Shown one piece after another: positions 1,783 through 17,542 of a DNA stretch of 19,557 nucleotides (position 1 is its first letter; the number at the start of each line of letters is the position of its first letter). The notes below the pieces were generated by a model, which did not search any database, had not been told where the DNA came from, and saw nothing but the letters and a program-made list of their open reading frames with translations. The position numbers and the translations under genes were made by a program. This DNA comes from a virus (Duplodnaviria; Heunggongvirae; Uroviricota; Caudoviricetes), in IMG/VR virus record IMGVR_UViG_2529293142_000017, positions 1-19,557 of that record; one strand, 5' to 3'.

Positions 1783-2049
1783 ATGCAAGCTGTTTTTTCT
1801 TCCCCGTCTCCTGCCCCTGTGACGCCACTGATGCCGCTGCCGGACATCACGCAGGAGCGTTTTTTACGTCTGCCGGAAGTGATGCACCTGTGCGGCCTGT
1901 CACGCTCGACCATCTATGAACTCATCCGTAAGGGGGAATTTCCGCCGCAGGTGAGTCTTGGCGGTAAAAATGTGGCCTGGCTGCACTCTGAAATCACCGC
2001 ATGGATGGCCGGGCGCATTGCCGGACGCAAACGGGGGTACGACGCATGA
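1783..2049 (+). CDS. vis: AlpA/Vis-family helix-turn-helix regulator (88 aa)
   Basis: GAGG RBS 7 nt before ATG 1783. The [28 protein letters not shown] segment is the AlpA/Vis-type HTH. Size and position (first gene rightward of the divergent late promoters) match P4 vis. Confidence 0.8.
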
Positions 2050-2084
2050 TGATGCCCGCTCTGCAAAAAGTCCCTTTTTCTGGC

Positions 2085-2114
2085 TTGCCTTTTTCCGGCA
2101 TTTGCGGATATAGT
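2085..2114 (+). promoter_or_regulatory. Candidate sigma70 promoter (TTGCCT-N17/18-TATAGT) at the head of a structured leader
   Basis: Hexamers at 2085-2090 and 2108-2114, immediately followed by a perfect 7-bp hairpin (2121-2140). Position corresponds to the early leftward promoter and immunity region of P4-type elements. Confidence 0.3.
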
Positions 2115-2177
2115 TTTTCTGCTGCCGCAAAATCGGCAGCCGGGCGTGGAAACCCGAGCAATTCACAGGCGACATAT

Positions 2178-2199
2178 GACGCGCCATGCGTCTTTTTTT
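2178..2199 (+). terminator. Small intrinsic-terminator-like hairpin within the leader
   Basis: GACGC-GCCAT-GCGTC stem-loop followed by T7 (2193-2199), about 70 nt downstream of the candidate promoter. Confidence 0.35.
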
Positions 2200-2447
2200 G
2201 TGTCGCAATCAACGCCACAGAGCGCCAGATTATGGTGTGGTGTGTGGTCAGTCGTGCAGATGGCATTCCGTGCATCCTGCCCGCGTCCGCTCATTATGCC
2301 GCAGAGTCAATGGTAGCTCAGGCGGGGCAGCCTCCGGGCTGGCCGGTATCCTGTGAAGCCGGTATTTCCACCCCCGTCTGGGCTATCGCCATCGAGCGTG
2401 GAAACTCCGGCGATAGCGTTATTTGCTATTCACAGGAGGCTGCCATC

Positions 2448-2645
2448 ATGGCTACAACCCTTACCCCCTCACACCCTGAATTTGTCTTTGTGTTTGCGGC
2501 TGTCCGTCGCGCAGACCGTCATCCCCGTATCTGCATGCTTCGCACCGTCGCCGGTGATGAACGCAGTGCCCGCCGTTCCCTTGTCCGTGACTATGTGCTC
2601 TCCCTTGCTGCCCGTCTGCCGGTGGTGGAGGTGTCCCGTGCGTAA
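2448..2645 (+). CDS. Hypothetical small protein (65 aa)
   Basis: AGGAGG RBS (2434-2439) 8 nt before ATG 2448. Its stop overlaps the GTG start of the next gene, consistent with translational coupling. It is the 3' part of the long 2001-2645 open frame. Confidence 0.4.
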
Positions 2646-2925
2646 TAAAAAAGCCCCTCAGACCGTCTCAGCGCGTCATGACGCCCGTGAACACCTCAGC
2701 ATTGAGGCTTACCATAAGCTCAACCGCGCCAGCGCCGTATCCCAGTTTGTTGGGGGTGATTTGATTCACCGTGAACTCTCCGGCCTGCATCAGCTCTACA
2801 TTCCGCATATTTTCAGCTACCTGAATGAAGATATTGATTTTGTGCTGAATGAGCTGAAAGCCAAAGGCCTGTGCCGCGATTTTCTCGCCCAGCAGAAAGA
2901 CCGGGGAGACAGGACGCATGTTTGA
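2638..2925 (+). CDS. Hypothetical small protein (95 aa); candidate epsilon-like derepression protein by position and size only
   Basis: GGAGG RBS (2626-2630) 7 nt before GTG 2638. Lies in the same operon ahead of alpha. No motif recognised. Confidence 0.5.
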
Positions 2926-3331
2926 TTTTCCCCAGCCCGGTGAGATTTACCGTTCTGCCGGTTTTCCCGATGTGGCCGTGGTCGGCATTCTGGAAGACGG
3001 TATTCCGTGGGAAATGCCGTACCGCTGCCCGGACATTGTCTGGAACCCGTACCGCCGTAAATTCAGTATCCTTGTGCGTATCCTCGCTGACGGGCGCACC
3101 ACAGACATCCCGCTGGGGCGTTTTCTGCGGGAATTTACCTGTGACCGTCCTGACCTGTTTAAACGCAGCCCCGTAAACCGGCATGCGGTACTGAAAGAAA
3201 TGGCCGGAGACCCGGAATTACAGAAATGGCGGGAGAAATATCTGGATATTTACCCGCAGGCCCCCTGTTCCGGTCAGCCGGGCGGCACCGGTGGCGCGGG
3301 AATGGCGGGAAATTCCCCGCACGGAGCCTGA
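2918..3331 (+). CDS. Hypothetical protein (137 aa), P4-type left-operon gene
   Basis: GGGGAG RBS about 9 nt before ATG 2918. Start overlaps the previous stop. Codon usage matches the neighbouring GC-rich genes. Confidence 0.55.
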
Positions 3332-3510
3332 CCCGGAAATCACCCCGGATAACAGTTACCGCAATTATCTGTAAATTAAAAAACGACCCCCGAAAAATTA
3401 AATGTGCGTATTCGCGCAGGGATACGCACGTCTTCAGGAGACGCAGATATGCCTTATCAGTTAATGCAACCGGCACGGAATGCAGTCATCTGTCACAGGG
3501 AGGAAAACAA

Positions 3511-3831
3511 ATGAAAACACCCTTACCGCCCGTCTTACGCGCTGCCCTTTACCGTCGCGCTGTCGCCTGTGCCTGGCTGACCGTGTGCGAACGTCAGCAC
3601 CGCTACCCGCATCTCACCCTTGAGTCACTGGAGGCGGCCATCGCCGCTGAGCTGGAAGGCTTTTATCTGCGCCAGCACGGTGAGGAAAAAGGGCGTCAGA
3701 TAGCCTGTGCCCTGCTGGAAGATTTAATGGAATCCGGCCCCCTGAAGGCCGCGCCGTCGCTGTCCTTTCTCGGGCTGGTTGTGATGGATGAACTCTGTGC
3801 CCGTCACATAAAAGCGCCGGTACTGCACTGA
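3511..3831 (+). CDS. Hypothetical protein (106 aa) immediately upstream of alpha
   Basis: AGGGAGG RBS (3497-3503) 7 nt before ATG 3511. Stop lies 14 nt before the alpha start. It is the in-frame 3' part of the 3226-3831 ORF. Confidence 0.6.
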
Positions 3832-3845
3832 AGGAGAACAACACC

Positions 3846-6179
3846 ATGAAAATGAACGTAACCGCCACCGTCAGCCATGCACTCGGCCACTGGCCGCGTA
3901 TCCTCCCGGCGCTGGGGATTCAGGTGCTGAAGAACCGTCATCAGCCCTGTCCGGTCTGTGGCGGGAGTGACCGCTTCCGTTTGGATGACAGGGAGGGGCG
4001 CGGCACCTGGTACTGCAATCAGTGTGGTGCCGGTGACGGCCTGAAACTGGTTGAAAAGGTGTTTGGTGTTTCCCCGTCCGATGCGGCCGCAAAGGTGGCT
4101 GCCGTGACCGGCAGCCTGCCCCCGGCTGACCCGGCAGTGACGGCTGCCGCCGGTGCTGAAACAGACGCTGCCCGGAAGAACGCCGCCGCACTGGCACAAA
4201 CCCTGATGGCGAAAACCCGTCCCGGAACCGGTAACGCCTACCTGACCCGCAAGGGCTTTCCCGGCCGGGAATGCCGGATGCTGACCGGCACACACAGAGC
4301 CGGTGGCGTGAGCTGGCGTGCCGGTGACCTTGTGGTGCCACTGTATGACGACAGCGGCGAACTGGTTAACCTTCAGTTAATCAGTGCTGACGGCCGTAAG
4401 CGCACCCTGAAAGGCGGACAGGTCAGGGGCACCTGTCACACCCTTGAAGGACAGAATCAGGCCGGAAAACGTCTGTGGATAGCGGAGGGATACGCGACCG
4501 CACTTACCGTGCATCACCTGACCGGTGAAACGGTGGTGGTGGCGCTTTCTTCCGTGAATCTCCTTTCTCTGGCCAGCCTTGCCCGGCAGAAGCATCCGGC
4601 CTGTCAGATTGTCCTTGCTGCTGACCGTGACCTCAGCGGTGACGGCCAGAAAAAAGCCGCCGCAGCCGCAGATGCGTGTGAAGGTGTTGTTGCCCTGCCG
4701 CCGGTCTTCGGTGACTGGAATGATGCCTTCACGCAGTACGGCGGGGAAGCCACCCGTAAGGCCATTTATGATGCCATCCGGCCACCGGCTGAAAGCCCGT
4801 TCGACACCATGAGCGAAGCGGAGTTTTCCGCCATGAGTACCAGCGAAAAGGCCATGCGTATCTATGAGCATTACGGCGAGGCGCTCGCGGTCGATGCCAA
4901 CGGCCAGCTTCTGTCCCGCTATGAAAATGGTGTCTGGAAGGTGCTGCCGCCACAGGACTTTGCCCGGGATGTGGCCGGGCTGTTTCAGCGTCTGCGCGCG
5001 CCGTTCTCCTCCGGGAAGGTGGCCTCCGTGGTGGACACCCTGAAGCTGATTATTCCGCAGCAGGAAGCCCCCTCCCGCCGCCTGATTGGCTTTCGTAACG
5101 GCGTGCTCGACACGCAGAACGGCACGTTCCACCCGCACAGTCCGTCACACTGGATGCGCACCCTGTGTGATGTGGATTTCACCCCGCCAGTGGAAGGGGA
5201 AACGCTGGAAACCCACGCCCCCGCGTTCTGGCGCTGGCTTGACCGTGCCGCCGGTGGCCGTGCGGAAAAACGCGACGTGATTCTGGCCGCACTGTTTATG
5301 GTGCTGGCAAACCGCTACGACTGGCAGCTCTTTCTGGAGGTGACCGGTCCCGGCGGCAGCGGCAAAAGTATCATGGCCGAAATAGCCACCCTGCTGGCCG
5401 GGGAGGATAACGCCACATCGGCCACCATTGAGACGCTGGAATCCCCGCGTGAACGTGCCGCGTTAACTGGCTTCTCACTGATACGCCTGCCGGACCAGGA
5501 AAAATGGAGCGGCGACGGTGCCGGACTCAAGGCCATCACCGGCGGCGATGCGGTGTCCGTTGACCCGAAATACCGGGATGCGTACTCCACGCACATCCCG
5601 GCGGTGATTCTGGCCGTGAACAATAACCCGATGCGCTTCACCGACCGCAGCGGCGGCGTGTCACGCCGGCGGGTGATTATTCACTTCCCTGAACAGATAG
5701 CCCCGCAGGAGCGCGACCCGCAGCTTAAGGACAAAATCACCCGCGAGCTGGCGGTCATCGTGCGTCACCTGATGCAGAAATTCAGCGACCCGATGCTCGC
5801 CCGGTCACTGCTTCAGTCCCAGCAAAACTCAGACGAGGCGCTGAACATCAAACGGGATGCCGACCCGACGTTTGATTTTATCGGCTATCTGGAAACCCTG
5901 CCGCAGACCAGCGGCATGTATATGGGGAACGCCAGTATCATCCCGCGCAATTACCGTAAATACCTCTATCACGCCTATCTGGCCTACATGGAGGCAAACG
6001 GCTACCGGAATGTACTCAGTCTGAAAATGTTCGGGCTGGGGCTGCCGGTGATGCTGAAGGAATACGGACTGAATTACGAGAAGCGCCATACCAAACAGGG
6101 GATACAGACCAACCTGACGCTGAAAGAGGAAAGCTACGGCGACTGGCTGCCAAAATGTGACGACCCTGCAACAATCTGA
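3846..6179 (+). CDS. alpha: P4 alpha-type multifunctional replication protein (zinc-binding primase, TOPRIM, P-loop helicase, C-terminal origin-binding region)
   Basis: 777-aa ORF with AAGGAG RBS. N-terminal CPVCGG...CNQCG zinc motif, EGYATALTVH (TOPRIM-like) and Walker A VTGPGGSGKS. Same length as P4 alpha, and flanked downstream by iteron repeats. Confidence 0.95.
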   Translation: MKMNVTATVSHALGHWPRILPALGIQVLKNRHQPCPVCGGSDRFRLDDREGRGTWYCNQCGAGDGLKLVEKVFGVSPSDAAAKVAAVTGSLPPADPAVTAAAGAETDAARKNAAALAQTLMAKTRPGTGNAYLTRKGFPGRECRMLTGTHRAGGVSWRAGDLVVPLYDDSGELVNLQLISADGRKRTLKGGQVRGTCHTLEGQNQAGKRLWIAEGYATALTVHHLTGETVVVALSSVNLLSLASLARQKHPACQIVLAADRDLSGDGQKKAAAAADACEGVVALPPVFGDWNDAFTQYGGEATRKAIYDAIRPPAESPFDTMSEAEFSAMSTSEKAMRIYEHYGEALAVDANGQLLSRYENGVWKVLPPQDFARDVAGLFQRLRAPFSSGKVASVVDTLKLIIPQQEAPSRRLIGFRNGVLDTQNGTFHPHSPSHWMRTLCDVDFTPPVEGETLETHAPAFWRWLDRAAGGRAEKRDVILAALFMVLANRYDWQLFLEVTGPGGSGKSIMAEIATLLAGEDNATSATIETLESPRERAALTGFSLIRLPDQEKWSGDGAGLKAITGGDAVSVDPKYRDAYSTHIPAVILAVNNNPMRFTDRSGGVSRRRVIIHFPEQIAPQERDPQLKDKITRELAVIVRHLMQKFSDPMLARSLLQSQQNSDEALNIKRDADPTFDFIGYLETLPQTSGMYMGNASIIPRNYRKYLYHAYLAYMEANGYRNVLSLKMFGLGLPVMLKEYGLNYEKRHTKQGIQTNLTLKEESYGDWLPKCDDPATI

Positions 6180-6195
6180 CCCTCATGACTCATCT

Positions 6196-6219
6196 GACCG
6201 GCATCTGCCGGTCTTTTTT
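6196..6219 (+). terminator. Rho-independent terminator after alpha
   Basis: GACCGG-CATCTG-CCGGTC hairpin followed by T6, 17 nt after the alpha stop. Confidence 0.6.
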
Positions 6220-6238
6220 ATCCCTGAATTCCCCGAAG

Positions 6239-6536
6239 GTGAACAATCCACTGTTCACCCTTCACCGTGTATTCACCCGTTATCACACTGAAATTAAAAG
6301 AGAAAAACGAAAGGTGAACAGTGTGAACAATCAAATCAAAAAAAACTTTTTTTTCTCCCTGTGTGATTTCAGTACGGGGGATTAATCACCGGTATGAGTC
6401 ACACCGGCAGAATGCCGGAGGTGAAGAATCGAATGTTCACCCTTCACCCATTATTCACCACCTATCATACTGAAATAAAAGGAGAAAAAGAAAGGTGAAC
6501 AGTGTGAACAGTTCTTCCGAAAAAAATTTTTTCTTA
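6239..6536. repeat. Two ~120-bp direct repeats, each with several TGTTCACC/GGTGAACA iterons (crr-like cis replication region)
   Basis: Copy A is about 6239-6358 and copy B about 6420-6536, roughly 60 bp apart and about 85 percent identical by eye. Each holds GGTGAACA, TGTTCACC, TTCACC and TATTCACC variants plus GGTGAACAGTGTGAACA, and each ends in an A-run/T-run tract (A8-C-T8 and A7-T6). Confidence 0.7.
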
Positions 6537-6651
6537 CTTTTAATTGTGTAAAAAACAGGCGATGCGCGCAGTGTGTATAGATATGTGTATAGTTATATTT
6601 TTTGAATATAATAATATCTTATAAATCAATGCTTTAACTTGCAATATTCAT

Positions 6652-6669
6652 TCCTATTATCGGCACCAT
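6652..6669 (+). repeat. Attachment-site core copy (left): 18 bp identical to 19004-19021, with the form of a tRNA 3' end
   Basis: TCCTATTATCGGCACCAT reads as T-stem 3' half, acceptor 3' half, discriminator A and CCA. No D arm or anticodon arm lies upstream, so it is a partial tRNA copy. It sits about 115 bp after the crr-like repeats. Confidence 0.7.
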
Positions 6670-7274
6670 CAAGAAAATCAATAACTTAGCTTAACTTCTC
6701 TAAGAAATTGTATCTTCTGTTATCACTTACAAACGCCTATACGTTGTTATGGGCTTTGGTAGTGTAACACGTATGGGCGAGTAGTTCCCAAGCTCAACCT
6801 CGTAACAAGTTCCTTTGAAGCTGGAAGACGTGCCACCGTCTCTAAACCTTCTACCAAAACTCTTAGCAAGATGTTCCACACCTGGCGCGGTGTCCAATGA
6901 TGCTACACGTCGTGAGACGTTGCAGAGGATAAACAGGCTAAATGATGGGAAGAGTTTTAAGTGCAATAGTGGATTAAAGCCCACCTCTTCAAAACCTAAC
7001 TTGATCGGGAAAGAATCAAGCTCTAGCACGGTTTCGTCCACCGGAGTACAACGGGTGCCTGATAAGAGAAGAACTGCTAAGACTTCATAGCTTTTGTGAA
7101 AAAGCCCTTTTTAGTGGATACGCCTACGGCGCTTATTTTTTGGTATAACCATCAAAGGCGCTTTATGGCTTCTATTGTCTTGAAAATGTATCTTTACTTG
7201 TATTGTGTTTTATGCGTAGTCTCCCTGTGTAGTATGTAACTTGTTAATTTTCATATGAATACAGAGGCAACACG

Positions 7275-7433
7275 ATGAAAAACATTGCAGCTATAAAACG
7301 TAATAACCGCAAGATTCACGCTCGTAAGTTCCTGTCTACGCCAGAAGGAAAAGCCTGGTTAGAGCGTAAACAGAGAGAGAACGAAGAAAGAAAACTCCTT
7401 AGTGAGTTGAAATGGCTTAGAGAGGATTTCTGA
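7275..7433 (+). CDS. Possible small basic protein (52 aa), not in the supplied ORF track
   Basis: AGAGG 7 nt before ATG 7275. Encodes MKNIAAIKRNNRKIHARKFLSTPEGKAWLERKQRENEERKLLSELKWLREDF, a charged helical peptide. Too short for compositional support. Confidence 0.3.
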   Translation: MKNIAAIKRNNRKIHARKFLSTPEGKAWLERKQRENEERKLLSELKWLREDF

Positions 7434-7700
7434 AAATCTCCAGAACGCAACAGGACGCATTCTAACGCTGTTTTCATTGCTTGATATAGGGATGTATAGG
7501 TGGTGTGTGTTTAATGCGTCTGTGAGCTTGTTTTGTGCCTTATTTTGCATTTTCATAATGCAGAAGAGAACACGGAAAGCCTTAAAATTAATTATTTGGG
7601 TATTTAAGGCTATTTTCAGGTTATTTAAGGGTATTAAACTTGATTTAATTGGTTGAAATATAAACAGATAGTTCTGTATCTTATTGATTTATAAGGTTAT

Positions 7701-7780
7701 TTTTAAATAAAGGTAAATAAAAAATAAATAGCCATAAATAGCTATAAATACATCTAAATACCTATAAATCCCTTTGAATA
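7701..7780. repeat. Eight tandem 10-bp units ending in ATAAATA (helically phased A/T repeat)
   Basis: ttttaaataa, aggtaaataa, aaaataaata, gccataaata, gctataaata, catctaaata, cctataaatc, cctttgaata. The exact 10-bp period predicts intrinsically bent DNA. Confidence 0.6.
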
Positions 7781-7884
7781 CATATGAAGCCCTTCCCTTA
7801 TGGCTAGATTGCGAGAGGTGCTTAACGCGATTTTCAGCGCCCCCCGATCTGGAAAATCCAGAATCCCCAAATATCAAGGAGGCA

Positions 7885-8424
7885 TTACGCCTCCTCTTCT
7901 TCCTTCTTAATTCGCTGTACCGTCGAAGGAGCAACATTAAAGATCTCGGCGGTTTTACGCACTGACAGGCCATCAGAAAGGGCTTTCTTTATACCTTCTC
8001 TATCTACTGCTTTTCCATTACCACGCTTTGTAGGATTGACGGCTTGCGCTTCTCGTTTACGTTCTAACATCAGTTCACGTTCACACGTTGCCACTGCCGA
8101 CAACATAGTAAGCATCATTTTTCCCATCGCGCTTGTAATGTCAGCAATGATCCCTTCTTTGTGAAATCGAACAATTACACCACGATTATTAAGCTCTTCC
8201 ACTAAAGCAAGAATGTCTAAGGTGTTACGCCCTAAACGGTCGAGAGAGTGCACGTGTAAGGTGTCGCCTTCTCTCAGATAGGATAAACACGCCTGCAATC
8301 CTGGACGGTTAGTGTCTTTACCTGACAGCTTATCTTCAAAGACTTTATCAAGCGTTACTCCTGCAAGCTGGCGATCAGTGTTCTGATCTACAGTGCTCAC
8401 ACGCTTATAACCGATATTGCTCAT
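7885..8424 (-). CDS. Serine recombinase of the resolvase/DNA-invertase family (179 aa)
   Basis: N-terminal GYKRVSTVDQNTDRQ catalytic-serine motif, internal SLDRLGRN, and C-terminal HTH (TAEIFNVAPSTVQRIKK). AAGAGG RBS before ATG at 8424. Confidence 0.9.
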   Translation of the reverse strand: MSNIGYKRVSTVDQNTDRQLAGVTLDKVFEDKLSGKDTNRPGLQACLSYLREGDTLHVHSLDRLGRNTLDILALVEELNNRGVIVRFHKEGIIADITSAMGKMMLTMLSAVATCERELMLERKREAQAVNPTKRGNGKAVDREGIKKALSDGLSVRKTAEIFNVAPSTVQRIKKEEEEA

Positions 8425-8439
8425 AAAATCCTCTTAATG

Positions 8440-8560
8440 TATCGATTTGGCACTACTTCAATGCAAATGAGTATATCGTATTCATTTGGTCTGTTTCAAG
8501 CCTTATAGGTACGGAATATTACACGATTTAGCTGTATTCATTTGGTATGCCTAATGGATA
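8440..8560. promoter_or_regulatory. Candidate recombinase target or regulatory region with TTTGG-type repeats
   Basis: Direct repeats GTATTCATTTGGT at 8478 and 8535, and imperfect palindromes ATTTGGCA-N-TGCAAAT (8446-8470) and ATTTGGCA-N25-TGCCAAAT (8621-8661), immediately upstream of the recombinase start, where res or inversion sites usually lie. Confidence 0.25.
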
Positions 8561-8994
8561 CACAGGGGAATAGATTAAATGGTGTTCTGTTTATACAGGT
8601 TTATTTGTTAGATCAACAATTTGGCATTTCTAAACAGATGTTTGAACGTTGCCAAATGTCTTGACAACACAAGAAAAGGGCTTGCTATGCCACGCATTAC
8701 ACGAAATAAGGCTGTAAAAACAAAATAAATTTTAAAATTTGCACAAACGAGAAAACTCATTCGACAAATAATAGATTAATTTTTAGCCAACAATTTCTGA
8801 TGGTGCTCTGTAAGCCGCATTACACAAGGCTTTGCGAAAGTGATGTAAAAGTGAAGAAAGTTAACATTGCTCTTTTAAGCTACTTTTTCATTGAATTTTT
8901 AGTATGGAATTACACAGGAATAAGTTAGGGATATTCTATGATTTACACAGGGAATATAGGGGGATTATGGCACACACATAGAAAGGCATTACAC
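8518..8994 (+). repeat. Dispersed direct repeats of ATTACACAGG(A)ATA-type motif, at least 6 copies
   Basis: ATTACAC at 8518, 8696, 8819, 8909 and 8988, TTTACAC at 8942, plus ATACACAGGGGAATAG at 8558. Inverted copies (GTGTAATT) at 9476, 9530 and 9581. AATTACAC-N12-GTGTAATT forms a perfect inverted pair at 9510-9537. Confidence 0.5.
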
Positions 8995-9256
8995 AGAGTG
9001 AGTGCTATGTGACAAATGGATGTAACGAGAGGTTACATTCAGCTATCTGAAATGCTCTTTGTAAGAAAGTTGGTAGTAACGGTAGGTCATAGTGAGCTAG
9101 GGGGTAGGTCACTGTGAACTACAATAAGACTATTAATAAAACTATATTAGATTATTAATTAGATCATAATAATAATATTCTTTATATCTATATATATATG
9201 ATCTTTTGCCTTCCGGCGTTAGCTTCACTCTCTGGCAAGCAACCTTACTCCGCTAC

Positions 9257-9352
9257 CTTTCGGGCTTCGTGGCTGGCCCGTTCCGCTCACACCGAAAGCA
9301 AAGCGTTACTTTCTTCGTGTAACTATCGTTGGCGGTAACGCCCACGAAGAAA
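9257..9352. other. GC-richer island of interleaved inverted repeats inside AT-rich non-coding DNA
   Basis: CTTTCGG (9257) pairs with CCGAAAG (9292); GCGTTAC (9303) with GTAACGC (9335); TTTCTTCGTG (9310) with CACGAAGAAA (9343). The last two pairs cross each other, giving a pseudoknot-like or alternative-hairpin topology. Confidence 0.4.
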
Positions 9353-9631
9353 TACTATTGCGCTGTGCGCAGTAAGAGTAATCACCTAACCAATCATACT
9401 GATTGCTTACGTGTTAACTCTCTCTAACTCTTAATTACCCTCCTACATTTAATAACTCTGTTATTCTCTGTAGTTGTGTAATTACTCGAAGAGAGAGCGG
9501 CTAAAGCTCAATTACACTCTGCTTTCCTCGTGTAATTTCACTAAGCCTCAATACAATTTCACTTCCTACATTCTGTAGTCGTGTAATTGTTTTCGGTGGA
9601 AAAGCCAGAGGCGACACCGAAAGAGAATTCT

Positions 9632-9695
9632 GATCTTATTAATCTTATCTATCTTAGTTAATCTTCTTACTTATCTTACTTAATCTTTATCTACT
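9632..9695. repeat. Phased ATCTTA repeats (about 7 copies, 9-10 bp period) starting with a GATC 13-mer-like element
   Basis: GATCTTATTAATC at 9632-9644 resembles the oriC-type 13-mer class (GATCT + AT-rich), followed by aatcttatct, atcttagtta, atcttcttac, ttatcttact, taatctttat. Confidence 0.45.
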
Positions 9696-10223
9696 TTATT
9701 ATTAATAATAGCTTTATAAGCTCTCTGTAGCTCTCTGACGCAAGAAACAGCATTCAGGAAGGGAATCACCTTAGAAAAGTGTTCTTTGCGTCATAATGTG
9801 TTTTATGAAGGATTCAGAGGTGTTTCATAACAGGAATGTATAGAGGATACGTTAGGTAATTAAAAATAAGGGGTCTAAATGCTTCTCTAACAGCATTAAG
9901 CAGGGTAGGGAATGGAAACGCATTGCCTACATATATAATCTCACTACAGAGCTTTACAGAGCGTTTTATAAAGTGACTCTCTATCTTATATCTACCATCA
10001 CCTTTTTATATACCTAACAAATACCAAATAAGCCCCTTAAATAAGCCTCTGGCGAGCTAAACAGCCATTACATAAGGGAATGTATTGCTTTTATCAAAAC
10101 TTCGTTAGAACGCGTTTTAGAGCGTTTTAGACAATAATGAAGAATAGCACTACACAGAAGAGCACGAATTGCTAAGAAAAAATGTAAGTGCATGAAAAAG
10201 ATCAGATTTTTTGTGAAAAGGTA

Positions 10224-10252
10224 TTGACAAATGTTTCTTTATATGTAATAAT
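10224..10252 (+). promoter_or_regulatory. Candidate sigma70 promoter for the plus-strand small-gene operon
   Basis: TTGACA (10224-10229), 16-17 bp spacer, TAATAAT (10246-10252), about 110 bp upstream of the first gene. Confidence 0.5.
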
Positions 10253-10361
10253 AGGTATTAGAGGGACAGAAAAACATTCTTCTCTAAATAATCAAAATCA
10301 ATGCACTTTGAAGCCGTCAGGCTTGCAAGGTGTTTTTCTTTTAACTGAATAAGGAGTTTTT

Positions 10362-10550
10362 ATGAAATGGTTTACACCGAAACACGTCGTCGAGGCATTT
10401 AAAAAAGGTGAGCTAACACGCCACCAGGTAGTAATGAACCGTAATATGGCAAGGAGTCGAGGTTATCCAGAGCGAGCAGCTTGCTTCAATGAAGCACTCA
10501 AGATTATTGATGAACTAAGAAAAAATGAAAAAGAATCTGAAACAGAGTAA
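10362..10550 (+). CDS. Hypothetical small protein (62 aa)
   Basis: AAGGAG RBS 5 nt before ATG. First gene after the promoter. Basic and helical. Confidence 0.5.
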   Translation: MKWFTPKHVVEAFKKGELTRHQVVMNRNMARSRGYPERAACFNEALKIIDELRKNEKESETE

Positions 10551-10569
10551 AGAATAGAAGGAGAAAACT

Positions 10570-10740
10570 ATGAGCGAAACTACAGAAAAGAAAAGACAAC
10601 CACGCACTTGCTTTCATATTCCTGATGAAGTATTTCAGGTGTTGTTTAAAGAAGCCAGAAGTAGACGTATCACTGTTACAGATTACATTCTTGATATGTT
10701 GAAAAGAGAGGCTGAAACACTCTCAAATAAAAGCAAGTGA
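10570..10740 (+). CDS. Probable ribbon-helix-helix (Arc/MetJ/CopG-like) DNA-binding protein (56 aa), not in the ORF track
   Basis: AAGGAG RBS 7 nt before ATG 10570. RTCFHIPDEVFQVLFKEARSRRITVTDYILDMLKRE fits a beta-strand plus two helices. Confidence 0.5.
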   Translation: MSETTEKKRQPRTCFHIPDEVFQVLFKEARSRRITVTDYILDMLKREAETLSNKSK

Positions 10741-10793
10741 TTTTTATCACCATAGTAGCGCCGTAGAGCGTGATTACATCAAGGAGATTTTTA

Positions 10794-11483
10794 ATGATTA
10801 ACCAACTAACTTTTACAAAACACTATGACACGTTTGATAATGTATCAAAGATTTATTCTGATAAATTCCCTCAAGGAAAAGATTTAGATCTATTACATAT
10901 TGTGCTTTATTTTCGATTCCTTAGTTATCAGGAAAACAACCTTAATTGTTATGAAAGTCACGAAACATTAGCTAAGATTTTTAAGTCTTCAGCGTCAACA
11001 ATTAAACGTAAGATAAACGATCTTAAAGAGATGGGATTATTAGAAACATCCCCACATCCTGATCCGTATATTTCATCTTTGATTTACAATGCTCTCCCTC
11101 TCACAGATGCACATATTACTCCCCCAGGAGAATCATCACTCTCTGATCTTTCTGAGGCAGCAGAAGCACAGGAACAACCTAAAGGCCATAAACAGCCTTC
11201 TTTTGATGTTCTTGATGATTGGGATGCGCCTTTGCCGTGGGAGACGGAAGAAACACCTGTTTCATCAAGTGAAAAGGTAGCTAATGATAATGAGGAGGAT
11301 GTGTTAGAGAATTTTGCCTCTCTTATCTGCCAGCAGAAACACACCAGAACAGGAGGGGCATCATTTATAGAATTTGCAAATTCACTAGCTTATAGACACG
11401 GGCTAAAACGACCAAATGGTATTGAGGCATATTTTTCTAAGAATTACCCAAATGTGTATGATGACTTTGATATTCCATTTTAA
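10794..11483 (+). CDS. Winged-helix DNA-binding protein with acidic C-terminal region (229 aa); candidate replication initiator or regulator
   Basis: AAGGAG RBS 7 nt before ATG 10794 (the track's upstream GTG start would cover the RBS). HTH-like segment ESHETLAKIFKSSASTIKRKINDLKEMGLLE. Acidic Ser/Glu-rich C-terminal half. Confidence 0.7.
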   Translation: MINQLTFTKHYDTFDNVSKIYSDKFPQGKDLDLLHIVLYFRFLSYQENNLNCYESHETLAKIFKSSASTIKRKINDLKEMGLLETSPHPDPYISSLIYNALPLTDAHITPPGESSLSDLSEAAEAQEQPKGHKQPSFDVLDDWDAPLPWETEETPVSSSEKVANDNEEDVLENFASLICQQKHTRTGGASFIEFANSLAYRHGLKRPNGIEAYFSKNYPNVYDDFDIPF

Positions 11484-11494
11484 TAAGGAGGGTT

Positions 11495-11773
11495 ATGATT
11501 CAATATTTAGTAAAAAATCAAGTAGACAGAATTCAGTGTAATGACACAGGAAAACGCATCTACGAAACACTTGCTTACCTCTATAAAGGAAAGCCAACAC
11601 CGCTAAAATATAGCGATGTGTTACATCGAGCAGGGTGCTCTGAAGATGGTTTAAAATTCTGGCTGAAACAGCTATCAAATTTCGGTGTTATAGAGATTAA
11701 AGAATTATCTTTCTCTACATTCAATCTCAAAAGACTGGATAAAGAAATAGTATTCATCTATTCCACTCTCTAA
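11495..11773 (+). CDS. Hypothetical protein (92 aa), possible small HTH protein
   Basis: AGGAGGG RBS directly upstream, 11 nt after the previous stop. The YSDVLHRAGCSEDGLKFWLKQLSNFGVIEI segment looks HTH-like. Confidence 0.6.
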   Translation: MIQYLVKNQVDRIQCNDTGKRIYETLAYLYKGKPTPLKYSDVLHRAGCSEDGLKFWLKQLSNFGVIEIKELSFSTFNLKRLDKEIVFIYSTL

Positions 11774-11905
11774 AATCTCTCTATGTAATTAAAATATAAA
11801 AGGAAAACATTATTATGATAGTAGCTATGTATTGGTTATTGTTCTTTCTCACGTTAGAAACATATTTCGGGGTGTTTTCCTTTAAAAGAAAAGGAAAAGT
11901 AAATA

Positions 11906-12313
11906 ATGGCAAAAAGAAAAAACAACGTTGTTAAGAAAATCGGTGATTCAGCTTCTCTTCTAAGTAAACCTAAATCTATTCTAAGACGTAAAGACTTTAA
12001 AGAGCTAGTTACGCTCTCCAAGCAAAATAGCGCCCCTGGCGAATGGAAAACAGAGATCATAGAACATTCTCCCTCTGTGCCTTGTGGAGATGAATTTAAC
12101 GCCTTACAAGAAATCTTATCTTCAACACCTGGCGTATTCTGGAAACCTAGAAAAAGAAAAGAGTATATTGTTGATAGCTCTGATTTACGCAAATACCAGA
12201 TTTTAGGATTTGAAGACTATAACCACTACGTTGGTTATCTCGCCACCAATGGCCTAAATAATTTAGTTCCTGAATTCCATTTAGATAATGATGATCACTA
12301 TGGAGACTTTTAA
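11906..12313 (+). CDS. Hypothetical protein (135 aa)
   Basis: AAAGGAAAAG RBS region before ATG. Basic N-terminus (MAKRKNNVVKK). Same strand and codon style as neighbours. Confidence 0.6.
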   Translation: MAKRKNNVVKKIGDSASLLSKPKSILRRKDFKELVTLSKQNSAPGEWKTEIIEHSPSVPCGDEFNALQEILSSTPGVFWKPRKRKEYIVDSSDLRKYQILGFEDYNHYVGYLATNGLNNLVPEFHLDNDDHYGDF

Positions 12314-12314
12314 T

Positions 12315-12653
12315 ATGAACAAAAACACGTATGATACAATTTACTCACTAATTAATTATTATGAGGATGATTACCTCCTGCCTTTAAACCGCGCTGAACT
12401 TGAAGCATATAAAGAAAATACACCATCGGCACTAAATGAGGCGTTTAAACACTGGGATCTAGCTGTGAATGCCTTGGAGCACCTCTTTAAGCGTGTAGAG
12501 ATGCTCTGTAAGCGCGAAAACGCATATCTGACAGCGGATCAGATATGGGAGCTATCAAACTGGATAGAAGATATTGAATCTGATGTTCGCTATGTGGGAG
12601 ATGGCCTTATCGAACTCGCACAACGCTTAGGCGCTGCTATCACAGAAGAATAA
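12315..12653 (+). CDS. Hypothetical protein (112 aa)
   Basis: GGAG 9 nt before ATG 12315, which lies 1 nt after the previous stop. The track's earlier start (12288) overlaps the upstream gene and has no RBS. Confidence 0.6.
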   Translation: MNKNTYDTIYSLINYYEDDYLLPLNRAELEAYKENTPSALNEAFKHWDLAVNALEHLFKRVEMLCKRENAYLTADQIWELSNWIEDIESDVRYVGDGLIELAQRLGAAITEE

Positions 12654-12682
12654 AAAAAGCAACAAAAAAGTTGTAAAATATC

Positions 12683-12711
12683 TTGACATTTCATATATTG
12701 TATGTTAATAT
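12683..12711 (+). promoter_or_regulatory. Near-consensus sigma70 promoter (TTGACA-N17-TAATAT)
   Basis: Hexamers at 12683-12688 and 12706-12711 in the intergenic gap after the 112-aa gene. Confidence 0.55.
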
Positions 12712-12909
12712 AATTATATGGGGTGATTATTTTTCCTTTATTGGTTCGATATTAAAAATTCTTCTTGTCGTTAAAGGGGAGTAAAATCTCCGCTCCCCGC
12801 TTCTCCTCCTTAAGTAAATACTGTGTCATTATTACCTCTTTTTTCCTTTGTTATGCATACATCTTGGAGTATGCATAACATAGGGTAATTACATAGGTAC
12901 AAGTTAATA

Positions 12910-12941
12910 AAAGGCGGCTCTAAATGCTGCCTTTTATTTTG
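12910..12941 (+). terminator. Intrinsic-terminator-like hairpin ending a ~200-nt ORF-free leader
   Basis: AAAGGCGGC-TCTAAAT-GCTGCCTTT (9-bp stem with one G-T) followed by TATTTTG. Lies between the strong promoter and the next gene start at 13003. Confidence 0.5.
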
Positions 12942-13002
12942 CCCGTTATGCAACTTAAAAGTTGTATTTCTTACTTTAAACAAGGTAACAAGGTTTATAT
13001 AA

Positions 13003-13215
13003 ATGTTGTTTTTAAACGATAAAGAGCAAATCATCAAGTATAAAGATGAAATGCTGAAAATTAATCCACAAATTACCGAAATGGTAGCTAAATACGCTGG
13101 GTGTTCTGTCGAGGAAGTAGAAAGATGTGTTGAAAAATATTTTTCTCCTTCTTCTCCGTCTACACCTTCCCTTAATGAATTAATCAAATTAAAAGCTAAG
13201 GAGATTACTAAATGA
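13003..13215 (+). CDS. Hypothetical small protein (70 aa)
   Basis: Weak RBS (AAGG about 12 nt upstream). Stop overlaps the next start (ATGA). Confidence 0.45.
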   Translation: MLFLNDKEQIIKYKDEMLKINPQITEMVAKYAGCSVEEVERCVEKYFSPSSPSTPSLNELIKLKAKEITK

Positions 13216-13574
13216 TTATTGATTTAGACACTCTATTTCCAGTTCGAAAGACTTTCACAGATATTGTAAGTTATTGTACTGATCCGTTTGCCTCTGTAGA
13301 AAGCAAGGTTTTTGCTTCTCTTCCTGCTGATGTTGAATGCGGAGACTTGATCACCAGCACTGGCGCTAAATATGAATCAGGAGATGATATCTATGTTGTT
13401 ATGAGTGAATTTTTAACGGCTGGAGAAAATAAGCCTGTAGATGTTTTACGTAGCAATGCTGGCCTTGTCTGCATCAAATCTGATGCGCTGAATGCTGTAA
13501 GTGAAGCAGCAAAAACAGCATTAATTAAAAAAGGCTTCCAGCTTGAAGGGTTCCATTCTGTTTTCACTTCTTAA
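13212..13574 (+). CDS. Hypothetical protein (120 aa)
   Basis: AAGGAG RBS 8 nt before ATG, overlapping the previous stop. Acidic protein. Confidence 0.6.
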   Translation: MIIDLDTLFPVRKTFTDIVSYCTDPFASVESKVFASLPADVECGDLITSTGAKYESGDDIYVVMSEFLTAGENKPVDVLRSNAGLVCIKSDALNAVSEAAKTALIKKGFQLEGFHSVFTS

Positions 13575-13592
13575 TAAAAGGAATAATAATAA

Positions 13593-14621
13593 ATGATTTT
13601 AGGTAATGATTACGTTGATTTAGCTCCTCTGTTCTCTGCGCATAGCACTAGAAACTATCTGCTTTCTACTCTTGATTTTACGGATTCTGTAGGGGTTACA
13701 TCTCATAAAGTAGCTGTTTCCCAGCTTGTCGAAAGCAACGAATCTCTGTTCAACAAAGAAACCTCTCGTTTCTCTTCTGAACACAACGTTACTAAGCGTG
13801 AACAAGGCAAAGAATATCTTATCGAAATCCCGTACTTTTTAAGGCAAGACCTGATCAAACCGCAGGACGTGCAAGGCAAGCGTAAGCCTGGCACTGATTT
13901 TCAGGAAACACTCACTGATATCTATGCTGACTATGTTGCTAAACACCACGTAGCGTATCAGCGCACTAAAGAAAGCGTATTGGCTGCTTCTTTGTTTAGT
14001 GGTCGCACCTATACCCCGAAAACTGACGATGTTCTTATCGAGTGGGGCAAGCTGTTTAACGTATCAGCTATGAAAGCCACTGTGAACGCTTCCAGCACTG
14101 ACACCACGAAGATTTTTAAAGAATTTGATCAGATTGCTACGAATATTATCGACAGAGCACAAAGCCAGGCGGCTGCTGTAGAAAGAATTGTTGTTTTCTG
14201 TAAACCTGACGCCTTCTCTGCAATTCGATTCTCTGCTGGTATGGCAAACGCATTCCAGTATGTAAGCCCACTGGAAGAGGGGAATGTTGTGTATCAGCGT
14301 CGTGACCTGCTGCCAGGGGTGACAGCGTTCACTATCCCAGGAACTAACATTGATGTTGTTAAACTGGTAGATCCGCTACACCTTGCACATATGACCGCAG
14401 ACGCTGTAGCTGTTCCGAAGTTTGCTAAAGGCTCTAATGTATATCAGAACATCTACGGGGCTGCTTCCAGCACCTTTGAACTGATTAATGCCGCTCCTGC
14501 TGAGGTGTACAGCTATAGCTATGAATCTTCTCGTGGTGATGCTGTTAACGTTGTTACAGAGAATAGCCAGATGGTGGTAAACCACGGCGTTGGCTTCTCT
14601 GTTCAAATCACTGTTAAATAA
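13593..14621 (+). CDS. Hypothetical protein (342 aa) with virion-structural-like composition; candidate major structural protein
   Basis: RBS-like AAAGGAA before ATG. Rich in Ala/Ser/Thr/Val/Asn with no Cys-rich or nucleotide-binding motifs. Followed by a strong terminator, as is common after highly expressed structural genes. No family recognised from sequence. Confidence 0.8.
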   Translation: MILGNDYVDLAPLFSAHSTRNYLLSTLDFTDSVGVTSHKVAVSQLVESNESLFNKETSRFSSEHNVTKREQGKEYLIEIPYFLRQDLIKPQDVQGKRKPGTDFQETLTDIYADYVAKHHVAYQRTKESVLAASLFSGRTYTPKTDDVLIEWGKLFNVSAMKATVNASSTDTTKIFKEFDQIATNIIDRAQSQAAAVERIVVFCKPDAFSAIRFSAGMANAFQYVSPLEEGNVVYQRRDLLPGVTAFTIPGTNIDVVKLVDPLHLAHMTADAVAVPKFAKGSNVYQNIYGAASSTFELINAAPAEVYSYSYESSRGDAVNVVTENSQMVVNHGVGFSVQITVK

Positions 14622-14640
14622 CATTTTAACGTGTAATAGA

Positions 14641-14673
14641 GGCGTGGCGTGTATTCACGCTTCGCCTTTTTTT
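14641..14673 (+). terminator. Rho-independent terminator
   Basis: Nested GC stem (GGCG...GCGTG-TATT-CACGC...CGCC) followed by T7, 20 nt after the 342-aa gene stop. Confidence 0.65.
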
Positions 14674-14707
14674 ATTTATTTTTTAAATTTTGAGAGGTGA
14701 TTAAAAT

Positions 14708-14911
14708 ATGGAAGTGATTCTGAAATCAAAAAATGGTGTACACGTACATTTAGATGCTAATGATTCTAGAGGATTGTTAAATCTGAAATATCTATGTTCT
14801 CTCCTAGATGTTCCATATGAAGGAGTAAAAGCCCGTATGTTCAGACTAAACGAGAGTATTGATCAAGCTCTACACCATTTCTTAAGTAAAGAAGGTGGTA
14901 AAAATGATTAA
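14708..14911 (+). CDS. Hypothetical small protein (67 aa)
   Basis: GAGAGGTGA RBS 7 nt before ATG. First gene after the terminator. Confidence 0.5.
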   Translation: MEVILKSKNGVHVHLDANDSRGLLNLKYLCSLLDVPYEGVKARMFRLNESIDQALHHFLSKEGGKND

Positions 14912-14925
14912 TAAGGGGATTTTAA

Positions 14926-16755
14926 ATGTTAGAAATTAACACTTCTAAAATTAAGAACACAGTTACATTTAGTGTAGATAAAGACAGCTTGAAAAAAGCG
15001 AAAGACTCTATTACAGGCTTAAAGGAATTCGCAGAAAATATCAAGCCAGCTAAATTAAGGTTTGATAATGTCACTAAAGGCTATAAGAAAGCACAAAACG
15101 AAGTAGACAAGATTGCTCAACAGAAAGCCAAAACAGAAAAACAGAATCAAAGAGCACAAGCTGCCGCAGCAAGAGCACAGGCAAGGCAACAGGCACAAAT
15201 AGCAGCACGCAAGGAGAAAGCAGAATTAAAGCTCCTTGATGTGTCAAGCTCTATCAGTGCAATGCACCGTCTCTCTGTAGCTGAACAATACAAAGCTATT
15301 GCACAGGCTAGAGAGATAGCAAAACAATATGAGCAAGGGGCTATCTCGCTTGCACGTATGAATAGCCAGATGAAACGCCTACAACAGCAACAACGTAAGA
15401 TTAATGGCAACCGAAAAGCACAATTAGCCCCCGTTAAGGGAGGATCAGGGAATTCCGCCACTATGGGCGCTCTGTTATTTGGAGGCGCTACGGCTGCTGC
15501 TGGCGTGATGGCTGTTAGTAAAGCCTCTGAATTTATGGCTAATAGCTTCGCTAACGCAGAGACACAAGGAGAGCTAATTCAACGTGCAAGGCTTGGCGGT
15601 GTAGACGTTAACCAGATGTATAATATTACAGAATGGGCGTATAAAAACGGCGTTGACTCTATGATGGGTGATCAAGGGGCTAGAAAATACCTGGATCAGA
15701 TGAAAGATGTTAGGGAACGTGCCGCAAAATCCTACAGTGAAGCTGAATTGGTGAAAGATAAGAAAACCGGAAAATCTGAATGGAAAGGCGGTGATAACGC
15801 TATTAATGAACTTCTAAACATCGGTGTTATTAACAAAAGCGACCTTAAAAAATTTGCTGATAATCCAGCCGGATTAATTTCTAAGGCTGTTAATGGAATG
15901 ATGAAAAAAGGGTTTTCAGACTCCCAAATTGGACAACGTTTAGAAGACCTGGGCGATGATTTGATGCTTACGTCAAAATATTGGCAACGTTCCGTTAAAG
16001 ATGTACAAGAAAGTATTAATCAGCAAAAAGCCTCTGGAAAATGGCTAACAGAAACACAGCAAGAATCTATCGTTAAATTCAGAGAACTAAACAGACAGCT
16101 TTCACAGCTTTCTGATGCAAGACAAGTAGCATTTGTAGACGGCTTTATGAAATCTCTCGATCCAAAAGTAACGGAAGAGTTTTTGAAAAACCTTTCTAAT
16201 CTCACTCCGTATTTTACGAAGCTGGGAGAAGCTACAGGAAGTCTCTTTGAAGCTATTATGAAGATTGTAAACTGGTTTAATCGTAATGATGATAAGACAG
16301 ATGCTATTCAGAAAAATTTAGGTGATGCACCGCCTTTGAGTAATGAAGGGATGAAACAGCATCTTTCTAATCTCGTTCCTGACCAATATAAAGGCGCTGG
16401 CACTGCAACAACTACACCTGATAATAGTCATTCTCTCTTTAACACGATTAAGGGATTGCTTTTCGATGATAATTCTTCTGTGTCAGATGTAAAAATGTCA
16501 GTCAATGAAGCACCGATAACCAATCTCAAACAGGGTGCTTTAAATAATCTTGCAATGACAACTCCGGCTTATAATTTATCTCCTGTGTTTAATCTGAATC
16601 CGACCTTTGAAGTGGTAACAGAGGTTCCTCTTACTATTAATTCTGACACATCAAGATTAAGCGATTATGTGGATTTTACAGCGAGAGCAAGTCGGGATAG
16701 CTTCTTGAAATCATTAACATTAACCAGCTTATCAGGACAATCCAACGGCGGGTAA
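14926..16755 (+). CDS. Hypothetical protein (609 aa) resembling a tape-measure or pilot protein: basic Gln/Ala-rich coiled coil plus a Gly/Ala hydrophobic segment
   Basis: AAGGGG RBS 9 nt before ATG. Residues ~60-170 are Lys/Gln/Ala-rich helix (QKAKTEKQNQRAQAAAARAQARQQAQIAARKEKAE), followed by GALLFGGATAAAGVMAV. No signal peptide and no enzymatic motif recognised. Confidence 0.8.
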   Translation: MLEINTSKIKNTVTFSVDKDSLKKAKDSITGLKEFAENIKPAKLRFDNVTKGYKKAQNEVDKIAQQKAKTEKQNQRAQAAAARAQARQQAQIAARKEKAELKLLDVSSSISAMHRLSVAEQYKAIAQAREIAKQYEQGAISLARMNSQMKRLQQQQRKINGNRKAQLAPVKGGSGNSATMGALLFGGATAAAGVMAVSKASEFMANSFANAETQGELIQRARLGGVDVNQMYNITEWAYKNGVDSMMGDQGARKYLDQMKDVRERAAKSYSEAELVKDKKTGKSEWKGGDNAINELLNIGVINKSDLKKFADNPAGLISKAVNGMMKKGFSDSQIGQRLEDLGDDLMLTSKYWQRSVKDVQESINQQKASGKWLTETQQESIVKFRELNRQLSQLSDARQVAFVDGFMKSLDPKVTEEFLKNLSNLTPYFTKLGEATGSLFEAIMKIVNWFNRNDDKTDAIQKNLGDAPPLSNEGMKQHLSNLVPDQYKGAGTATTTPDNSHSLFNTIKGLLFDDNSSVSDVKMSVNEAPITNLKQGALNNLAMTTPAYNLSPVFNLNPTFEVVTEVPLTINSDTSRLSDYVDFTARASRDSFLKSLTLTSLSGQSNGG

Positions 16756-16786
16756 TTCCCGCCATAACATTACAAGGAAAATTATT

Positions 16787-17500: not shown

Positions 17501-17542
17501 CTGTAAATGCCTCTAAAACGCTCTGTAACGATGTAATTATAA

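Follow-up and report, generated by a model that had tools for sequence, protein, structure and literature searches.

A gene-poor, repeat-rich span in an integrated E. coli island

We analysed a stretch of viral DNA of 19,557 nucleotides (IMG/VR record IMGVR_UViG_2529293142_000017, positions 1 to 19,557; hereafter the window), in which positions 8425-10361 form a span nearly free of open reading frames (ORFs) that, as we argue below, probably serves an integrated phage satellite as its replication origin and control region. The span lies within a low-GC island of ~12.5 kb that extends from about 6652 to about 19100 of the window, and the homology of this island to a copy inserted at thrW (tRNA-Thr) starts within the 3′ end of tRNA-Thr. 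The genes of the island are arranged as follows:

7885-8424, minus strand: 179-aa serine recombinase, followed by the ORF-poor span
After the span: ORFs of 62 aa and 56 aa, then a 229-aa winged-helix protein (10794-11483), small ORFs of unknown function and a gpE-type capsid protein
End of the island: 609-aa tape-measure-like protein, 237-aa tail protein and a tyrosine integrase

An earlier reading of this DNA, referred to here as the original prediction, held that no ORF of 60 codons or more falls at 8425-10350, and this was borne out, the longest overlapping ORFs being 54, 50, 46, 42, 41 and 40 aa. A hidden ORF in 9198-9338 or elsewhere was ruled out by frame-breaking indels, and the start codon at 8800 is not conserved. 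Of 5,426 complete E. coli genomes, 705 carry the span, and nearly all of these leave it without annotation. Using a pattern anchored in a conserved core of the span, together with E. coli genome hits, we assembled ~100 homologous loci, which have a common layout of an optional recombinase, 1.3-2.6 kb of gene-free DNA, small ORFs and the gene for the 229-aa protein (rep). The layout persists where islands bear different cargo (GmrSD, HNH, TIR) and where they occupy different insertion sites (thrW, tRNA-Gly, thiM).

All of the repeats listed in the original prediction were found in the span. Direct and inverted repeats of the TTACAC type are enriched: the window contains 18, where 8.9 +/- 2.5 would be expected, and none of 200 shuffles reached this number. 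Eleven of the 18 lie within 8519-9586, where six are on the plus strand (8519-8994) and the remainder mostly on the minus strand (9317-9586). The AATTACAC-N12-GTGTAATT pair was located at 9510-9537, a GC-richer knot that folds better than shuffles at 9200-9400, phased repeats of the ATCTTA type at 9633-9706 (periods 9-10 and 22), and the tandem GCGTTTTAGA pair at 10112-10131 (100% match). Absent from that list was what proved to be the key element, a 19-nt direct repeat, GGTAGGTCAyWGTGArCTA, at 9081 and 9103.

Iteron type agrees with the N-terminal class of Rep

The region around the 19-nt repeat, and the gene whose product appears to act on it, contain the following features:

9020-9121, plus strand: iteron cassette, from repeat search and class/iteron comparison
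9020-9038: palindromic box ATGTAAC-GAGAG-GTTACAT, with a degenerate unit at 9030-9046
9081-9099 and 9103-9121: two class-A iterons with a 22-bp period
9122-9205: AT-rich tract, the presumed DNA-unwinding element, with GATC at 9162 and 9200
9121-9132: conserved ACAATAAGACTA box opening the AT tract
10794-11483, plus strand: rep, encoding the 229-aa RepA_N-like initiator of class A, outside the span and the functional partner of the origin

The two 19-nt units lie 22 bp apart, and relatives carry 2-5 copies at the same spacing; each class-A iteron is semi-palindromic, with an inner palindrome TCAC-n-GTGA. Across the related loci the N-terminal part of rep takes at least five forms that are unrelated to one another (alleles A to E; the window is in class A), and the repeats that track these alleles are all found at one position, immediately right of the conserved core:

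Class A: iteron GGTAGGTCAyWGTGArCTA, 22-bp period, 2-5 copies
Class B: iteron CACCCCCACAGAATTCTGTTA
Class C: iteron TGATACCCCTATCAA
Class D: iteron CCTAGGAAATGAGTTCC
Class E: iteron GTAACGAnnnGTTACA

All five iteron types are semi-palindromic direct repeats, and each array ends at an AT-rich tract opening with an ACAATAAGAyTA box. An AT tract also follows the iterons in the unrelated island L004, which has the same module order as the origin region. The iteron type nearest the AT tract agreed with the Rep N-terminal class in 65 of 67 distinct loci.

The DNA between the iterons and rep exists in two unrelated forms, or backbones, which are paired with two forms of the Rep C-terminal domain (57/57 loci). 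Classes A, B, D and E are each found on both backbones. Among the E. coli strains with the element, ATCC 8739 and MRE162 share the middle block of the window. Given that the order along the DNA is iterons, middle, Rep-N, Rep-C, the association of iterons with Rep-N and that of the middle with Rep-C are interleaved, so the pairing of iterons with Rep-N is not simple linkage and is instead maintained by selection. Under free assortment of iteron types, the probability that all four classes also match on the second backbone would, as a rough guide, be (1/5)^4, ~0.002. Judged by this comparison of five classes on two backbones, each iteron type appears to be specific to its cognate initiator DNA-binding domain.

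We therefore place the putative origin in the window at 9020-9205, comprising the two intact iterons (9081-9121) and the AT tract (9122-9205). The original prediction thus appears right in its broad claim that the span holds an iteron-type origin served by the downstream 229-aa winged-helix protein, and wrong in its detail. The repeats it put forward as origin features (ATTACACAGG, ATCTTA and AGAGCGTTTTA) are not the iterons and do not covary with the initiator allele, and neither the iterons nor the AT tract had been singled out. Its suggestion that the element replicates after excision is very probably correct for this integrated element.

The 229-aa protein resembles replication initiators

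A PHROG search matched the 229-aa protein to replication initiators. In its AlphaFold model, a winged-helix N-domain predicted with confidence is joined through an acidic, disordered linker to a small helical C-domain that ends in DIPF. The longest Foldseek alignments were to RepA_N plasmid initiators (4pql, 4pt7, 4pta, 5kbj), to DnaD-N (2v79) and to 4ro3, described in the paper on the Vibrio cholerae satellite PLE as the N-domain of PLE RepA. In Pfam, HTH_36 fell slightly under the cut-off, and profile searches against PDB and NCBIfam gave generic winged-helix matches only. Both forms of the Rep C-terminus end in a conserved D-x-(I/L)PF (DFDIPF or YDSLPF), a motif resembling the short peptides by which partner proteins are docked.

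Such a domain could also belong to a protein that acts purely as a transcription factor, with the iterons as its operators and the span devoid of origin function. MarR and ArsR regulators likewise match the generic winged helix of the N-domain, and the NCBI name of the protein is ‘transcriptional regulator’. We nevertheless regard this as very unlikely. The only strong promoter is ~1.1 kb downstream of the repeats, which adjoin the AT tract, not the promoter; the promoter region is invariant across Rep classes, which leaves no allele-specific operator; the longest structural matches are initiators; and in phages these very domains occur joined to nucleases, after the manner of the origin-directed nuclease from phage ICP1.

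Polar motifs and a recombinase cassette lie left of the putative origin

To the left of the iterons, the span contains the upstream region of the recombinase gene and a conserved left arm:

8425-8551, minus strand: upstream region of the optional serine-recombinase cassette, which spans 7877-8551
-35 at 8499 and -10 ending at 8470, minus strand: recombinase promoter, from a promoter scan
8462-8489: candidate res-like palindrome CAAATGAGTATA/TATTCATTTG
8534-8549 and 8443-8457: further candidate half-site copies
8552-9027, plus strand: left arm, with a conserved core at 8750-8925
8518-8524, 8696-8702, 8819-8825, 8909-8915, 8942-8948 and 8988-8994, all plus strand: six copies of ATTACAC/TTTACAC
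8812-8832: hairpin AAGCC-GCATTACACA-GGCTT in the left arm

The core of the left arm is kept in all family members, whatever their Rep class. The ATTRCAC motif likewise does not track Rep class and is strictly polar about the origin in both backbones, a polarity common to two right arms that are otherwise unrelated in sequence:

Left of the origin, backbone form 1: 4.9 plus-strand and 0 minus-strand copies per locus
Left of the origin, backbone form 2: 3.7 plus-strand and 0.1 minus-strand copies per locus
Right of the origin, backbone form 1: 0.9 plus-strand and 3.0 minus-strand copies per locus
Right of the origin, backbone form 2: 0.03 plus-strand and 1.9 minus-strand copies per locus

From this distribution we consider ATTRCAC a putative polar accessory motif that points at the origin from either side. 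Its identity as a DnaA box was ruled out, as at most 7-8 of 9 positions fit.

The serine recombinase named in the original prediction is present, and it proved to be an optional cassette with its own candidate sites: roughly one locus in three either lacks the whole of 7877-8551 cleanly or has something else in its place. Inverted half-sites of the TATTCATTTGG type occur in 8425-8551. Those at 8443-8549 lie inside the cassette and are candidate res-like sites. Where the other recombinase allele is present, a different upstream repeat set, GTGTAGTGAT/ATCACTACAC, occupies the same place. The 179-aa recombinase is about equally near the gamma-delta/Tn3 resolvases and the Gin invertase. Together, these observations point to 8425-8551 and the recombinase as a self-contained resolvase-res module, plausibly for multimer resolution.

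With a recombinase of the resolvase/invertase family adjoining the span, the DNA might instead be an invertible or shuffling segment in which inverted ATTACAC copies act as crossover sites. The motif does occur in both orientations, including the 28-bp AATTACAC-N12-GTGTAATT site, and the 10-nt loop of the hairpin at 8812-8832 is inverted in a few copies. Against this, minus-strand matches were found in 0 of ~100 related loci, and none in 343 E. coli genomes with near-full coverage, where each record had the span in one place. Of the loci that keep ATTRCAC, about one in three has no recombinase, each recombinase allele covaries with its own upstream repeat set, and the loop inversion has arms of only 5-6 bp. 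A Hin/Gin-type invertible segment or shufflon was thus rejected for want of any inverted orientation in ~100 loci, and we find inversion of the span by the recombinase hardly credible. The loop of this hairpin is the reverse complement in 3 of 73 unique copies (L151, L114, L142), a micro-inversion suggesting that a hairpin or cruciform forms in vivo at 8812-8832. Directly upstream of it, the decamer ACAATTTCTG (8790-8800) occurs in 1-3 tandem copies (related loci L088, L126).

We also considered whether the left arm and the ATTRCAC arrays form a pac/cos-like packaging signal for a helper terminase. A satellite must be packaged, this element encodes no terminase (as also reported in PMC10448857), and both backbones show the arrays of the motif with their conservation and polarity. 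On the other hand, apart from a 46-nt match to a T5-like phage, the DNA of the span has no similarity to sequenced phages, and neither similarity nor a motif cluster was found in the terminal repeat and first 50 kb of phi92, a third of its genome. We consider a packaging signal here distinctly improbable. The transfer or packaging function offered in the original prediction likewise gained no support, there being no informative similarity in phage and plasmid collections or in the part of phi92 checked. Borrowed phage or plasmid DNA (cos/pac, oriT or a plasmid ori) was rejected in the same collections, which returned only the 46-nt match and misfiled chromosomes.

A GC-richer block and right arm assort with the Rep C-terminal domain

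To the right of the AT tract are a GC-richer block and the right arm:

9206-9400, no strand assigned: GC-richer hairpin block, from folding against shuffles
9283-9291: CCGCTCACA, in the GC block
About 9310-9352: stem TTTCTTCGTG/CACGAAGAAA, in the GC block
9358-9372: invariant hairpin TTGCGCTGTGCGCAG, in the GC block
9401-9950, minus strand: right arm, backbone form 1
9476-9482, 9530-9536 and 9581-9587: GTGTAAT (minus-strand ATTACAC), with GTGTAAC at 9317-9323
9511-9517: plus-strand ATTACAC copy in the right arm
9626-9720: second AT-rich tract with phased ATCTTA repeats
9736-9793: long hairpin

The right-arm form pairs with the Rep C-terminal form in 57 of 57 loci. The whole of 9206-9830 is hairpin-rich and, on the plus strand, pyrimidine-rich; it is noncoding, as 1-5 nt indels are common, and the right arm is noncoding given these frequent indels and an 82-nt deletion between direct repeats. 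Within-allele diversity of the GC block is 0.010, compared with 0.019 at the second and 0.052 at the third codon positions of rep, while the remainder of 9206-9830 has a within-class diversity of 0.02-0.04. An apparent near-invariance of 9191-9830 was discarded, being inflated by a mixture of old allele classes in the flanks; within alleles, only the GC block is clearly constrained. A 66-nt piece of this block is 94% identical in the unrelated island L004.

Constraint and structure of this kind could reflect a long structured noncoding RNA encoded by the span or by 9206-9830, in which the repeats would serve RNA structure or binding. As RNA, either strand of the GC block gives a better fold than shuffles do (z -2.8), its diversity is lower than that of rep second codon positions, small changes fall mostly in predicted loops, the one stem change gives a U.G pair on the plus strand only, and the terminator-like hairpin at 9736-9793 follows the block on the plus strand. 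However, the span has no Rfam 15 match at gathering thresholds and only chance-level matches at E<=5, and the promoter scan gave no promoter-like site feeding the block on either strand. The RNAalifold covariation term is 0.17, about 0; predicted pairs are mostly invariant, and the four ‘compensatory’ pairs come from a poorly aligned outlier. Indels of 1-5 nt occur in the supposed stems and across the block. A structured single-strand DNA site fits equally well, since folding as DNA (z -3.6) is better than as RNA, and an RNA would leave the covariation of iterons and Rep unexplained. An RNA as the explanation of the span thus seems unlikely to us. It is possible that 9206-9830 is a priming or replisome-loading site, an RNA or a packaging signal.

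A conserved promoter and leader precede the rep operon

The right end of the span carries the control elements of the operon:

9945-10223, plus strand: conserved promoter-upstream block
9945-9968 and 10109-10131, plus strand: AGAGCkTTTA repeats, candidate regulator sites
10224-10252, plus strand: operon promoter, with TTGACA at 10224-10229, a 17-nt spacer with TG, and AATAAT at 10247-10252
Leader of ~100 nt, plus strand, within 10224-10361: a stem at 10303-10333, a T-run at 10333-10342 and a ribosome-binding site at 10351-10356

The promoter matches 11 of 12 consensus positions in the promoter scan. Across 52 distinct copies its hexamers are invariant and the leader stem is kept while its loop varies (fold z -2.5). 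The conservation of stem and T-run alongside a variable loop identifies a leader terminator and suggests that the operon is regulated through antitermination or attenuation. The AGAGCkTTTA repeats vary in copy number, with three in locus L034. At 10087-10132, over the AGAGCGTTTTA tandem, 46 nt are 89% identical to an unannotated sequence in the T5-like Klebsiella phage KPN4, close to its right end (E = 9e-5), which could be chance or a shared regulatory site.

The island belongs to a family of putative phage satellites

The 609-aa protein is related, in shortened form, to the tape measure found in virulent myoviruses of the phi92/rV5 type (35-37% identity), and the 237-aa protein is ~60% identical to a Justusliebigvirus tail protein encoded beside the tape-measure gene. 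No terminase or portal gene was found among the island proteins. Judged by its genes, the island has the features of a phage satellite: an integrase and attachment (att) sites, a replicon of its own and a partial, helper-derived set of structural genes, with neither terminase nor portal. [quoted passage not shown] That work, in which the initiator proteins were called RepA_N by HHsearch, described a satellite family with a RepA of modular N-domain, a major capsid protein, a tape-measure protein, a baseplate protein, an integrase and att sites. It makes no mention of iterons, an origin or a noncoding region for the E. coli satellites, and the origin of this family had not been located before the present analysis.

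Several genomes carry IS3, IS1 or IS5 insertions in or near the noncoding region or rep (E. coli hits H27 and H95; loci L013 and L004), indicating that many copies of the island are decaying. Noncoding DNA makes up ~1/3 of the island, including another 1.2 kb of mostly gene-free sequence from the left att site to the recombinase (6652-7884), where the only annotated ORF is 52 aa long (7275-7433). On the left, IHF-consensus sites occur at 6624 and 6676; a further one, at 19025, is found towards the right end. The first 6651 positions of the window are a fragment of a different prophage, with a GC content of 55-64%, in tandem at the same tRNA-Thr site, and include the C4 antisense RNA, its a1/b1 targets and isrK at 2108-2393.

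Coliphage nucleases carry captured initiator domains

When phage genomes were searched with Rep, a single match was obtained, in Justusliebigvirus inny. In this 367-aa protein, residues 1-140 match class E Rep at 87% identity, residues 160-251 match class D Rep at 89%, and the C-terminus is a T5orf172/GIY-YIG-type endonuclease domain. The chimera of phage muut combines class C (88%) with class D (89%), and that of Mt1B1_P17 combines class B (99%) with class D (88%). The three genes are:

inny (L162): 1414-2517
Mt1B1_P17 (L163): 314-1300
muut (L164): 228-1226

Jointly, these three nucleases of phi92/rV5-type phages hold captured copies of four initiator DNA-binding domains, among which class A is not represented. 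The same three (Inny, Muut and Mt1B1_P17) had been reported previously, the second RepA_N domain of each being described as without a detectable satellite cognate (PMC10448857). Contrary to that description, the second domain of all three matches class D Rep by alignment, at 88-89% identity. Class A Rep, which is abundant in E. coli, has no close counterpart among sequenced phage nucleases (26-32% identity), and class A may be an escape allele. The coliphage chimeras share the design of ICP1 Odn, a nuclease that cuts the PLE origin at its iterons (PMC8263062), and we count this likeness as support for an arms race at the origin. The iterons are likely a target of nucleases carried by large virulent phages.

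Discussion

In our view the span probably provides an integrated phage satellite, one that exploits or resists phi92/rV5-type myoviruses, with its noncoding origin and control region; it would be a composite of five parts, with its origin caught up in an arms race. Comparative data establish the pairing of iterons with initiator, and it is from there that we infer the steps that follow. In the first part, 8425-8551 would supply the promoter and cognate sites of a resolvase-type recombinase that resolves multimers of the excised replicon. In the second, dimers of the 229-aa initiator would bind the iterons at 9081-9121 through the N-terminal winged-helix domain and open the AT tract at 9122-9205, and the C-terminal domain would recruit a helicase or replisome, which the protein itself lacks. 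In the third, the ATTRCAC motifs pointing to the origin from either side would bind an accessory factor. The fourth is the backbone-specific, hairpin-rich block at 9206-9830, which assorts with the Rep C-domain and may load the replisome, prime, or encode an RNA. In the fifth, the strong promoter and leader terminator (10224-10361) would control the rep operon. Phage nucleases with captured initiator domains would select for swapping of the iteron/initiator module.

Several observations weigh against this composite origin. The related loci were gathered by a pattern from the conserved core and so represent one family, not independent samples; two of them, L050 and L088, have mismatched iteron and Rep classes, and many retain leftover iterons of other classes. 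The window itself has only two intact iterons, where other class-A copies have 3-5. By sequence the N-domain is a generic winged helix common to transcription factors, and the structural matches to RepA_N proteins have weak E-values (0.02-0.1). Taken alone these matches are suggestive only, given such E-values; they agree with the PHROG matches and with the HHsearch assignment of PMC10448857. There is no DnaA box (TTWTNCACA) in 8425-10361, the three matches in the window (2.2 expected) all falling outside the span, nor does the span contain canonical IHF sites; GATC is not enriched in it either. Roughly 1.2 kb of the span (the left arm and 9206-9950) lies outside any assigned mechanism. Finally, the argument for an origin is comparative throughout, and on that footing we infer replication, protein binding and unwinding. 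As for the leftover arrays, they lie upstream of the cognate one in loci L006, L030, L034, L084, L022 and L099 (in L034, A x6, C x2 and D x3) and could be relics of module swaps, decoys, or sites for another satellite’s Rep in trans.

More tentatively, and with the balance of our judgement against it, the region could be organized in two layers, one a swappable iteron/Rep-N module that evades nucleases and the other a helper-facing layer of ATTRCAC arrays and hairpin block that assorts with the Rep C-domain. The abundant class A would then be the current escape type, matched by no sequenced phage nuclease, and the head-to-head ATTRCAC arrays and hairpin block would load the helper replisome or form a priming or packaging signal. 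If this were so, E. coli would host a multi-way arms race on the scale of that between PLE and ICP1, with more modules and with dual-headed nucleases.

To our knowledge, attack on a satellite's replication origin by a phage nuclease whose DNA-binding domain was borrowed from that satellite has been worked out by experiment for PLE and ICP1 alone. The present analysis places a corresponding putative origin in a widespread E. coli family, represented by the 705 of 5,426 complete genomes that carry the span. It defines five matched iteron/initiator modules, matches the unexplained second domain of the coliphage nucleases to class D, accounts for an unannotated stretch of ~2 kb in these islands, and offers a tractable host in which to test satellite origins.

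The putative origin can also be set beside known replicons and recombination sites. As in Tn3/gamma-delta res and plasmid multimer-resolution modules, ~110 bp containing several imperfect inverted half-sites, candidates here, directly precede a small serine recombinase gene, the half-sites overlapping its promoter; here, unlike in Tn3/gamma-delta res, the sites are predicted and the cassette is optional. RepA_N plasmid origins (pSK41, pTZ2162) and classical iteron origins, RK2 oriV among them, resemble the region in having direct repeats at about two helical turns, a winged-helix initiator and an adjoining AT-rich region. The accessory boxes on one side of RK2 oriV and the GC-rich block on its other side are also reminiscent of the layout here. 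Unlike those autonomous plasmids, the replicon here sits in the chromosome and probably depends on a helper. Its putative origin lies 1.7 kb upstream of rep, whereas in RepA_N plasmids the origin is usually within that gene, and DnaA boxes are missing.

The closest analogue is the noncoding origin region of PLE, in which 2.7 kb of noncoding DNA hold four repeat families, only one of them the origin (PMC7145576). Both systems have a kilobase-scale, gene-free region between divergent transcription units with several repeat families, one of which is, or here appears to be, the origin. Both encode a short initiator with a separate C-domain and an N-domain that is, or here is predicted to be, of the RepA_N type, lacking helicase and primase; in both, the origin and the initiator N-domain swap as a module; and in both, a virulent phage of the helper type encodes a RepA_N-T5orf172 nuclease. 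The two regions have no detectable sequence similarity, and there are at least five modules here compared with two in PLE. The E. coli elements have genes of their own for homologues of capsid, tape-measure and baseplate proteins. Class A, to which the window belongs, falls outside the three satellite types matched by a nuclease in PMC10448857. Where ICP1 Odn carries one captured domain at 42% identity, the coliphage nucleases carry two, at 87-99%.

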